Under the pieces are notes generated by a model, which had not been told where the DNA came from, made no database searches, and saw nothing but the letters and a program-made list of their open reading frames with translations. A stretch of 64,000 nucleotides of DNA, taken from the NCBI RefSeq assembly GCF_003790525.1, contig NZ_CP033635.1. One strand, 5' to 3'. Made by a program: the position numbers and the translations under genes. This DNA comes from Escherichia coli (GTDB taxonomy: Bacteria > Pseudomonadota > Gammaproteobacteria > Enterobacterales > Enterobacteriaceae). Of this stretch, positions 37,331 through 37,406 are shown in pieces (the stretch's first letter is position 1; each line of letters opens with the position of its first letter).

Positions 37331-37338
37331 GACAATTG

Positions 37339-37371
37339 TGCCGGATACAGCGCAAACGCCTTATCCGGCCA
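37339..37371. repeat. REP (repetitive extragenic palindromic) element
   Basis: gccggatacagcgcaaacgccttatccggcc matches the enterobacterial REP consensus; sits in the 76-bp gdhA-topB spacer. Confidence 0.55.
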
Positions 37372-37406
37372 TAAAAATCTTCAGTATCAGATGGTTGAAA
37401 GAACCT

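Follow-up and report, generated by a model that had tools for sequence, protein, structure and literature searches.

Results

Genes and features at the gdhA-topB junction

The stretch of Escherichia coli DNA analyzed here (64 kb, referred to below as the window) contains the convergent genes gdhA, encoding NADP-specific glutamate dehydrogenase (positions 35987 to 37330, plus strand; 447 amino acids [aa], with a TAA stop codon at 37328 to 37330 in the list of open reading frames), and topB, encoding DNA topoisomerase III (37407 to 39362, minus strand; 651 aa, stop codon at 37407 to 37409). The GdhA protein is 99% identical in amino acid sequence to that of K-12; the start of topB was taken as 39362, the 670-aa reading frame of the list beginning at an upstream TTG. 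Between the two genes lies a spacer of exactly 76 bp (37331 to 37406), the unoccupied allele of a variable site. The window is 100% identical to E. coli SMS-3-5 over 12.7 kb, and the RefSeq annotation of that identical stretch likewise places gdhA next to topB, with the 76-bp gap unannotated; both this annotation and the reading-frame list support an earlier note on this DNA, which had described the two genes as convergent and 76 bp apart. The same note had reported ynjI as missing, and this, too, is borne out: the list contains no reading frame within the spacer, no DUF1266 reading frame was found between gdhA and topB in the window, and tblastn detected no YnjI-like sequence anywhere in the 64 kb (best E value, 0.8). 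A scan of positions 37000 to 37800 found neither a sigma-70 promoter consensus nor an intrinsic-terminator consensus on either strand, and Rfam returned no known small RNA in the spacer. The 3' end of topB (37407 to 37606, minus strand), which encodes the lysine-rich C-terminal tail, is strongly haplotype-specific.

Two further features of the window were recorded on the gdhA side. Close to the gdhA stop codon, five substitutions fall within 6 nt (37310 to 37315; TTAAGC in the window versus CTGGCG in K-12 and most outgroups), a cluster that turns ...MLAQGVI into ...MLSQGVI. GdhA protein WP_000373044.1 is common to the inspected SMS-3-5, EC556, GN02323, NIST0056, and SCU-115 genomes, and among its carriers EC556 has IS1397 in the spacer and NIST0056 has the Hsp70 cassette (both described below). 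Farther away, the left 29.7 kb of the window (1 to 29672) is not syntenic with K-12 or SMS-3-5, where pfkB...ynjA would be expected; at the boundary (29672/29673), 7 nt before the ynjA stop codon, the end of a CP4-like genomic island abuts ynjB. The corresponding junction of SCU-115 is 98.9% identical to that of the window, and the SCU-115 island encodes a YadA-like adhesin, a GTPase, a DUF932 protein, an antirestriction protein, a JAB/RadC protein, a YeeU/CbtA toxin-antitoxin pair, and a DUF4942 protein. Of 5426 complete E. coli genomes, just 29 share this island junction.

The spacer contains one slightly decayed REP of the y type

The sole structured element of the spacer is an inverted repeat, GCCGGATACAGCG/CGCCTTATCCGGC, which agrees with the REP palindrome described in the earlier note. 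It is a single y-type REP (palindromic unit) on the minus strand at 37340 to 37373, made up of a hairpin (37340 to 37369) and the position of the GTAG motif (37370 to 37373). The hairpin lies 9 nt past the gdhA stop codon and 37 nt past that of topB; its arms (37340 to 37352 and 37357 to 37369) pair at 11 of 13 positions around a 4-nt loop, and the stem contains a 2-nt internal mismatch. It folds with -23.8 kcal/mol on the plus strand (z = -4.1) and -25.7 kcal/mol on the minus strand (z = -3.6), and none of 200 shuffled sequences folded as well. By chance, the pattern GCCGGAT-N(8-22)-ATCCGGC is expected 0.01 times per window, and the element at 37340 to 37369 is the only copy with perfect feet in the 64 kb.

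The definition of the REP family was taken from Ton-Hoang et al. (2012; PMC3333891): an extragenic imperfect palindrome of 30 to 40 nt with noncomplementary bases in the stem, a GTAG motif, and many dispersed copies. With y-type REPs and BIMEs the window element shares a 30-nt extragenic imperfect palindrome, the 2-nt stem mismatch, and a position 3' of a stop codon between convergent genes. It is also one of many copies, as a 45-nt REP query matched 40 or more places in each genome across 5424 records, and genomes that do not carry the window's allele have REP copies that are 80 to 90% identical over at least 80% of the query. The GTAG motif itself is not conserved in the window, where its position reads TATG on the minus strand (CATA on the plus strand, 37370 to 37373). 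A search with the canonical y-REP consensus, allowing up to three mismatches, returned nothing in the window, the known copy included, because this copy is degenerate at the GTAG and in one arm; relative to the consensus, two changes in the left arm weaken the stem. Membership was therefore set through orthologues and genome-wide copy number. The orthologous copies in two sister lineages, E. albertii (L006) and an Escherichia lineage labelled E. coli (L005), are canonical y-REPs (...GCCGGATGCGGCGTAAACGCCTTATCCGGCCTAC) that keep GTAG/CTAC, and the window REP is thus a slightly decayed y-type member and not a nonmember. It differs from most E. coli REPs, which are paired in BIMEs, in being single. 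In Rfam, it gave a subthreshold match to the REP-derived naRNA4 (32.8 bits versus a gathering score of 59.5). E. coli REPs or palindromic units, including the y type, and BIMEs have reportedly been described by Bachellier et al.

Two features bear on recognition by the REP-associated transposase TnpA(REP): the stem mismatch was required for its binding, and mutation of GTAG abolished binding and cleavage (PMC3333891). Since the GTAG has been replaced by TATG, the window REP is probably no substrate of TnpA(REP), and we predict that it is inert for this transposase.

The window and K-12 differ by a block replacement

The earlier note had placed a gene of about 1 kb, ynjI, between gdhA and topB in K-12, and this was correct. 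In MG1655, ynjI (b1762; 1041 bp, minus strand) encodes an inner-membrane DUF1266 protein (match to PF06889, E = 1.8e-25) and occupies the site between the gdhA and topB stop codons from which the gene is absent in the window; the stop-to-stop distance in MG1655 is 1284 bp, so K-12 does not share the short spacer. The protein belongs to a very small family, which comprises only 8 clusters (90% identity) in a set of 5.8 billion proteins.

The idea that the two junctions differ by a simple indel, in contrast, did not hold. In blastn, the window can be aligned with K-12 up to 37331, the first base after the gdhA stop codon, and again from 37432, 25 nt inside topB, leaving a haplotype-specific block of 100 bp (37332 to 37431) without BLAST-detectable K-12 homology in place of 1308 bp, including ynjI, in K-12. 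The identity of topB to K-12 is 66% at 37407 to 37506 and 83% at 37507 to 37606, compared with 92 to 100% over the rest of the gene, and the TopB proteins are 99.8% identical save for the last ~45 residues, the lysine-rich tail. Between gdhA and ynjI, K-12 has a BIME (z-type inverted REP, linker, REP), whereas the window has the single y-REP. The difference is a block replacement in which the REP type and the last ~120 to 200 nt of topB were swapped as well. The K-12-specific segment has a GC content of 0.35 to 0.45 versus 0.54 to 0.56 in the flanks, and ynjI is activated by BglJ-RcsB and influenced by H-NS/StpA (PMC3950696); this AT-richness and mode of control are typical of acquired genes.

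Junction states in complete E. coli genomes

The survey of presence and absence that had been proposed was run on 5426 complete E. coli genomes, a clinically biased sample. The window's spacer occurs in 1530 of them (~28%), intact in 1494 and at 99% identity or more in 1180; consistent with this, contiguous gdhA-topB junctions matching the window were found in 1514 genomes. The ynjI junction is present in 3506 genomes (65%), and a junction with an Hsp70 and J/Sel1 cassette is present in 368. Together, the three main states account for 5404 of the 5426 genomes and are essentially mutually exclusive, while a divergent junction, matched by the junction query at only 80 to 90% identity, occurs in ~22. 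Thus, K-12 and the window do differ by ynjI, as had been noted, but the difference is not specific to a strain. SMS-3-5 and the type strain ATCC 11775 are among the REP-only strains; K-12, O157:H7, and O111:H11 are among those with ynjI; and CFT073, 536, and a Nissle derivative are among those with the Hsp70 cassette. The ynjI allele is presumably carried by phylogroups A, B1, and E, the REP-only allele by phylogroup F and part of B2, and the Hsp70 cassette by another part of B2.

In about 35 genomes the spacer is split into two places, and in all three of those inspected (EC556, ETEC4068, and HH45) junction sequences and annotation place IS1397 in the REP loop, corresponding to 37352 to 37357 of the window (copies at L003 2601-3949, L093 2101-3449, and L094 2117-3465). 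EC556 and ETEC4068 carry IS1397 in one orientation with the target duplication GCAA (37352 to 37355), and HH45 carries it in the opposite orientation, 2 nt further on; IS1397 has entered the loop of this REP at least twice independently. Targeting of REP/PU loops by IS1397 is said to have been reported by Clement et al. in 1999 and Wilde et al. in 2003, and the insertions seen here are natural ones with a short target duplication, as described; they lie in orthologues of the window REP only, the window itself being free of any IS. Insertion of IS1397 into REP/PU sequences is known experimentally (PMC1525189).

The third allele (L004 4356-7987; L085 1414-5924) encodes an HscC-like Hsp70 (566 aa, 43% identity to HscC) and a protein of 644 aa in which a DjlB/DjlC-like J domain is fused to seven YbeQ/YbeT-like Sel1 repeats, to which a 266-aa signal-peptide-like hypothetical protein is sometimes added. 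The TopB tail of this haplotype is a third, unrelated variant, with topB identity to the window of 54% at 37407 to 37506 and 84% at 37507 to 37606. The alleles of the site are thus REP only, ynjI (in two deeply diverged forms), Hsp70 and J/Sel1 with or without the 266-aa protein, and IS1397. Alternative cargoes between the same conserved flanks are a property of integrase-driven genomic islands and att-site hotspots; no integrase or tRNA is annotated in any of the alleles, however, and no direct repeats are shared in the junction sequences. A search of PADLOC-DB v2 gave no match for YnjI or the 266-aa protein, only a weak match to PDC-M61B for the Hsp70 (E = 3.5e-4), and only a repeat-level match to PtuA for the J/Sel1 protein. 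The K-12 cluster ybeQ-ybeR-djlB-ybeT-ybeU-djlC-hscC holds the same families (Sel1, DUF1266, J domain, and Hsp70) as the two gdhA/topB cargoes, but it lies at another chromosomal location, and YnjI has no similarity to YbeR and YbeU that BLASTP could detect, sharing the Pfam domain alone. In ECE170 (L100 3391-4806), a deletion bounded by IS1B starts downstream of spy, takes out the ast operon through gdhA, and stops midway in the J-domain gene that belongs to the Hsp70 cassette.

The gdhA-topB junction in other enterobacteria

A TopB-anchored scan with one genome per species yielded 80 loci, a set that is without E. fergusonii, E. marmotae, E. ruysiae, and S. enterica subsp. enterica; 56 of these non-E. 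coli loci contain both topB and gdhA. The two genes lie less than 200 bp apart in 45 of the 56, and no YnjI homologue was found in any of the 80. Close neighborhood of gdhA and topB without ynjI thus extends to at least 45 further species of Enterobacteriaceae. Inserts of 0.4 to 7 kb separate topB from gdhA at eight loci (L035, L038, L039, L044, L047, L050, L058, and L065). At others (L052, L055, L056, L059, L062, L063, L066, L069-L082, and L084, from Siccibacter, Buttiauxella, Cedecea, Ewingella, Rahnella, Serratia, Yersinia, Pectobacterium, and others), ynjH directly follows topB and the fetched locus has no gdhA; the presence of gdhA beside topB is therefore itself variable at a deeper level.

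The ancestral state in Escherichia rests on two outgroup lineages. The window spacer aligns through the REP with that of E. albertii L006 and with that of lineage L005, whose identity to the window over 15 kb is just 90% despite its label. The canonical y-REPs of both, GCCGGATGCGGCGT(A/G)AA..CCTTATCCGGCCTAC, are followed by GAAAACCTTCTGCAT at the topB stop codon, which corresponds to GCCGGATACAGCGCAAACGCCTTATCCGGCCATAAAAATCTTCAGTAT in the window. The last 120 nt of topB in the window match those of L005 at 84% and those of E. albertii at 83.5% identity, but those of K-12 at only 65%. Because REP and topB tail are both orthologous to those of L005 and E. albertii, the REP-only allele appears to predate E. 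coli. The alignments thus point to a junction state older than the species and not to a recent loss, which is what calling ynjI "absent" might have implied.

The E. albertii locus has a peculiarity of its own: in strain NBRC 107761 (L006, ~6150 to 6234), the topB tail contains an in-frame stop (…APSSGE*KKKASPRKR…) that gives a 624-aa product, and the tail sequence beyond it is still conserved. Either the gene was truncated recently or the stop is a sequencing error.

Relatives of the K-12 haplotype

The last 120 nt of K-12 topB are 84% identical to those of Pseudocitrobacter sp. L020, as opposed to 65% to the window, and the last 21 residues of the K-12 and L020 TopB proteins are identical; over the gene body, the identity of K-12 topB is 96% to the window and 82% to Pseudocitrobacter. 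The BIME between ynjI and gdhA in K-12 is collinear with that of ynjI-less Pseudocitrobacter spacers. A contig from a Hadza gut sample (L091), 98% identical to the P. faecalis type strain DSM 27453 (L021), has ynjI at the same site (80% aa identity to K-12), from which the gene is absent in L021. More diverged forms (60 and 58% aa identity) lie by topB/gdhA ends in two further enterobacterial lineages (L101 and L102). A recent Pseudocitrobacter transfer as the source of the K-12 TopB tail was also considered, and this reading was softened in view of the nucleotide identity of only 84% and a ynjI dS of 1.3.

E. coli itself has a second ynjI allele with 68% aa identity to that of K-12 (L087-L090 4001-5032 versus L001 5832-6872). 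Synonymous differences between the two are saturated (pS 0.76), compared with a dS of 0.05 to 0.06 in the flanking gdhA and topB, and on this comparison the ynjI body appears far older than, or foreign to, its E. coli flanks. Between K-12 and P. faecalis, the dS of ynjI is 1.3 versus 1.3 to 1.9 for the flanking genes, values that a vertically inherited ancient polymorphism would fit as well as import.

Every ynjI-bearing lineage has, between the topB stop and the ynjI start, an inverted repeat of the form ATATCCA-N(16-18)-TGGATAT followed by a T-run (L001 6900-6960; topB-ynjI spacers of L087, L091, L101, and L102). This repeat could be a topB terminator, part of the ynjI promoter/BglJ-RcsB region, or both.

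Discussion

Comparison of the gdhA-topB junction across E. coli and other enterobacteria leads us to consider it likely, with good confidence, that the window carries an old, unoccupied, REP-only allele of a multiallelic site and that the K-12 block was imported by recombination. The K-12-type allele would then be a foreign-looking block, in which ynjI is accompanied by a z-type BIME and another TopB tail, that most likely reached E. coli through homologous recombination in the conserved gdhA and topB flanks, with a lineage of Pseudocitrobacter-like haplotype as the putative donor. Transfer through flanking homology is suggested because no integrase, tRNA, or direct repeat was found. The most economical course would be a single entry of ynjI into the gdhA/topB junction in some enterobacterial lineage, followed by movement between species through recombination. 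Some observations run against this explanation: the empty state is a minority among the sampled E. coli, and the TopB tail of the window is about as distant from those of Citrobacter and Salmonella as the K-12 tail is.

The minority status of the empty state would also fit a rival view, in which a K-12-like ancestor lost ynjI through a recent deletion confined to one lineage: the gene is present in the majority of complete E. coli genomes (3506 of 5426), and deletions do happen at this locus, as the IS1-associated loss from spy to gdhA in ECE170 illustrates. Deletion from the K-12 haplotype would, however, leave behind the z-BIME and the K-12 TopB tail, and the window has neither; it contains no ynjI fragments, its y-REP and TopB tail instead have their orthologues in E. 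albertii and lineage L005, and the spacer is intact in 1494 genomes, 1180 of them at 99% identity or more. A recent deletion is thus largely refuted, and we regard it as highly improbable. Nothing was found in favor of a collapsed or misjoined junction produced by assembly or annotation, which is still less credible, to the point of being negligible, given that the identical junction recurs in about 1500 independently finished genomes with gdhA and topB annotated as adjacent.

Somewhat more weight is due to an ancient trans-species polymorphism, in which both alleles would predate the split of Escherichia and Pseudocitrobacter and would have been inherited without any import. In at least four lineages (E. 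coli, P. faecalis, L101, and L102), ynjI occupies the same site and the spacers are built alike; the gene also segregates as present or absent within P. faecalis, and its K-12/P. faecalis dS (1.3) matches that of the flanks (1.3 to 1.9), all of which is as such a polymorphism would have it. It would, however, have to outlast several speciation events. The 84% identity of the K-12 TopB tail to that of Pseudocitrobacter stands against the ~65% predicted from the usual faster divergence of the tail, and repeated import more easily explains a pS of 0.76 between E. coli ynjI alleles in flanks with a dS of 0.05 to 0.06. We therefore think it rather unlikely, and the conclusion on the window is the same under import or trans-species polymorphism.

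A more far-reaching proposal is that the gdhA/topB junction is a long-lived, cross-genus cassette site under balancing or frequency-dependent selection. This reading fits because the empty REP allele persists beside occupied ones, because the ynjI alleles are anciently diverged (with saturated sites in flanks with a dS of ~0.05), and because one alternative cargo is an HscC-like Hsp70 and J/Sel1 module. We regard it as speculative and on the whole improbable; if it were true, DUF1266 and HscC-type modules would be interchangeable parts of an uncharacterized system of conflict or envelope variation.

As for the function of the REP-only spacer, the hairpin may form an RNA structure at the 3' ends of the two convergent transcripts, acting as an exonuclease barrier and a weak termination signal. 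This role, which draws on what is known of the family, seems the most likely because no canonical terminator is present; the hairpin is the only strong structure available to the gdhA and topB transcripts. At the DNA level, the REP may in addition be a target for REP-specific insertion sequences. A REP close to a stop codon reportedly also reduces translation through ribosome stalling (Liang, Rudd and Deutscher, in 2015). REPs have been described as stabilizers of mRNA 3' ends that also bind gyrase, IHF, and Pol I (PMC1525189).

The gdhA/topB feature of the window is real, common, and ordinary; it is explained by known biology, is visible in public annotation, and is not novel. Modest curiosities, which concern sequences outside the window, are that the site has several alleles across genera and that both alternative cargoes come from protein families occurring together in the K-12 ybeQ-hscC cluster. 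Our results confirm that K-12 does not represent the reference state of the junction: ynjI, an AT-rich accessory gene, is missing in about one-third of sequenced E. coli strains, the type strain included, and transfer of the K-12 annotation would falsely flag a "missing gene" between gdhA and topB. As the C-terminal tail of TopB differs by haplotype, the 3' sequence of topB makes an unreliable marker of vertical descent. The site may serve as a clean natural example of accessory genes crossing genera by recombination in their flanks, without mobile-element machinery, at a place that adjoins a REP attracting IS1397.
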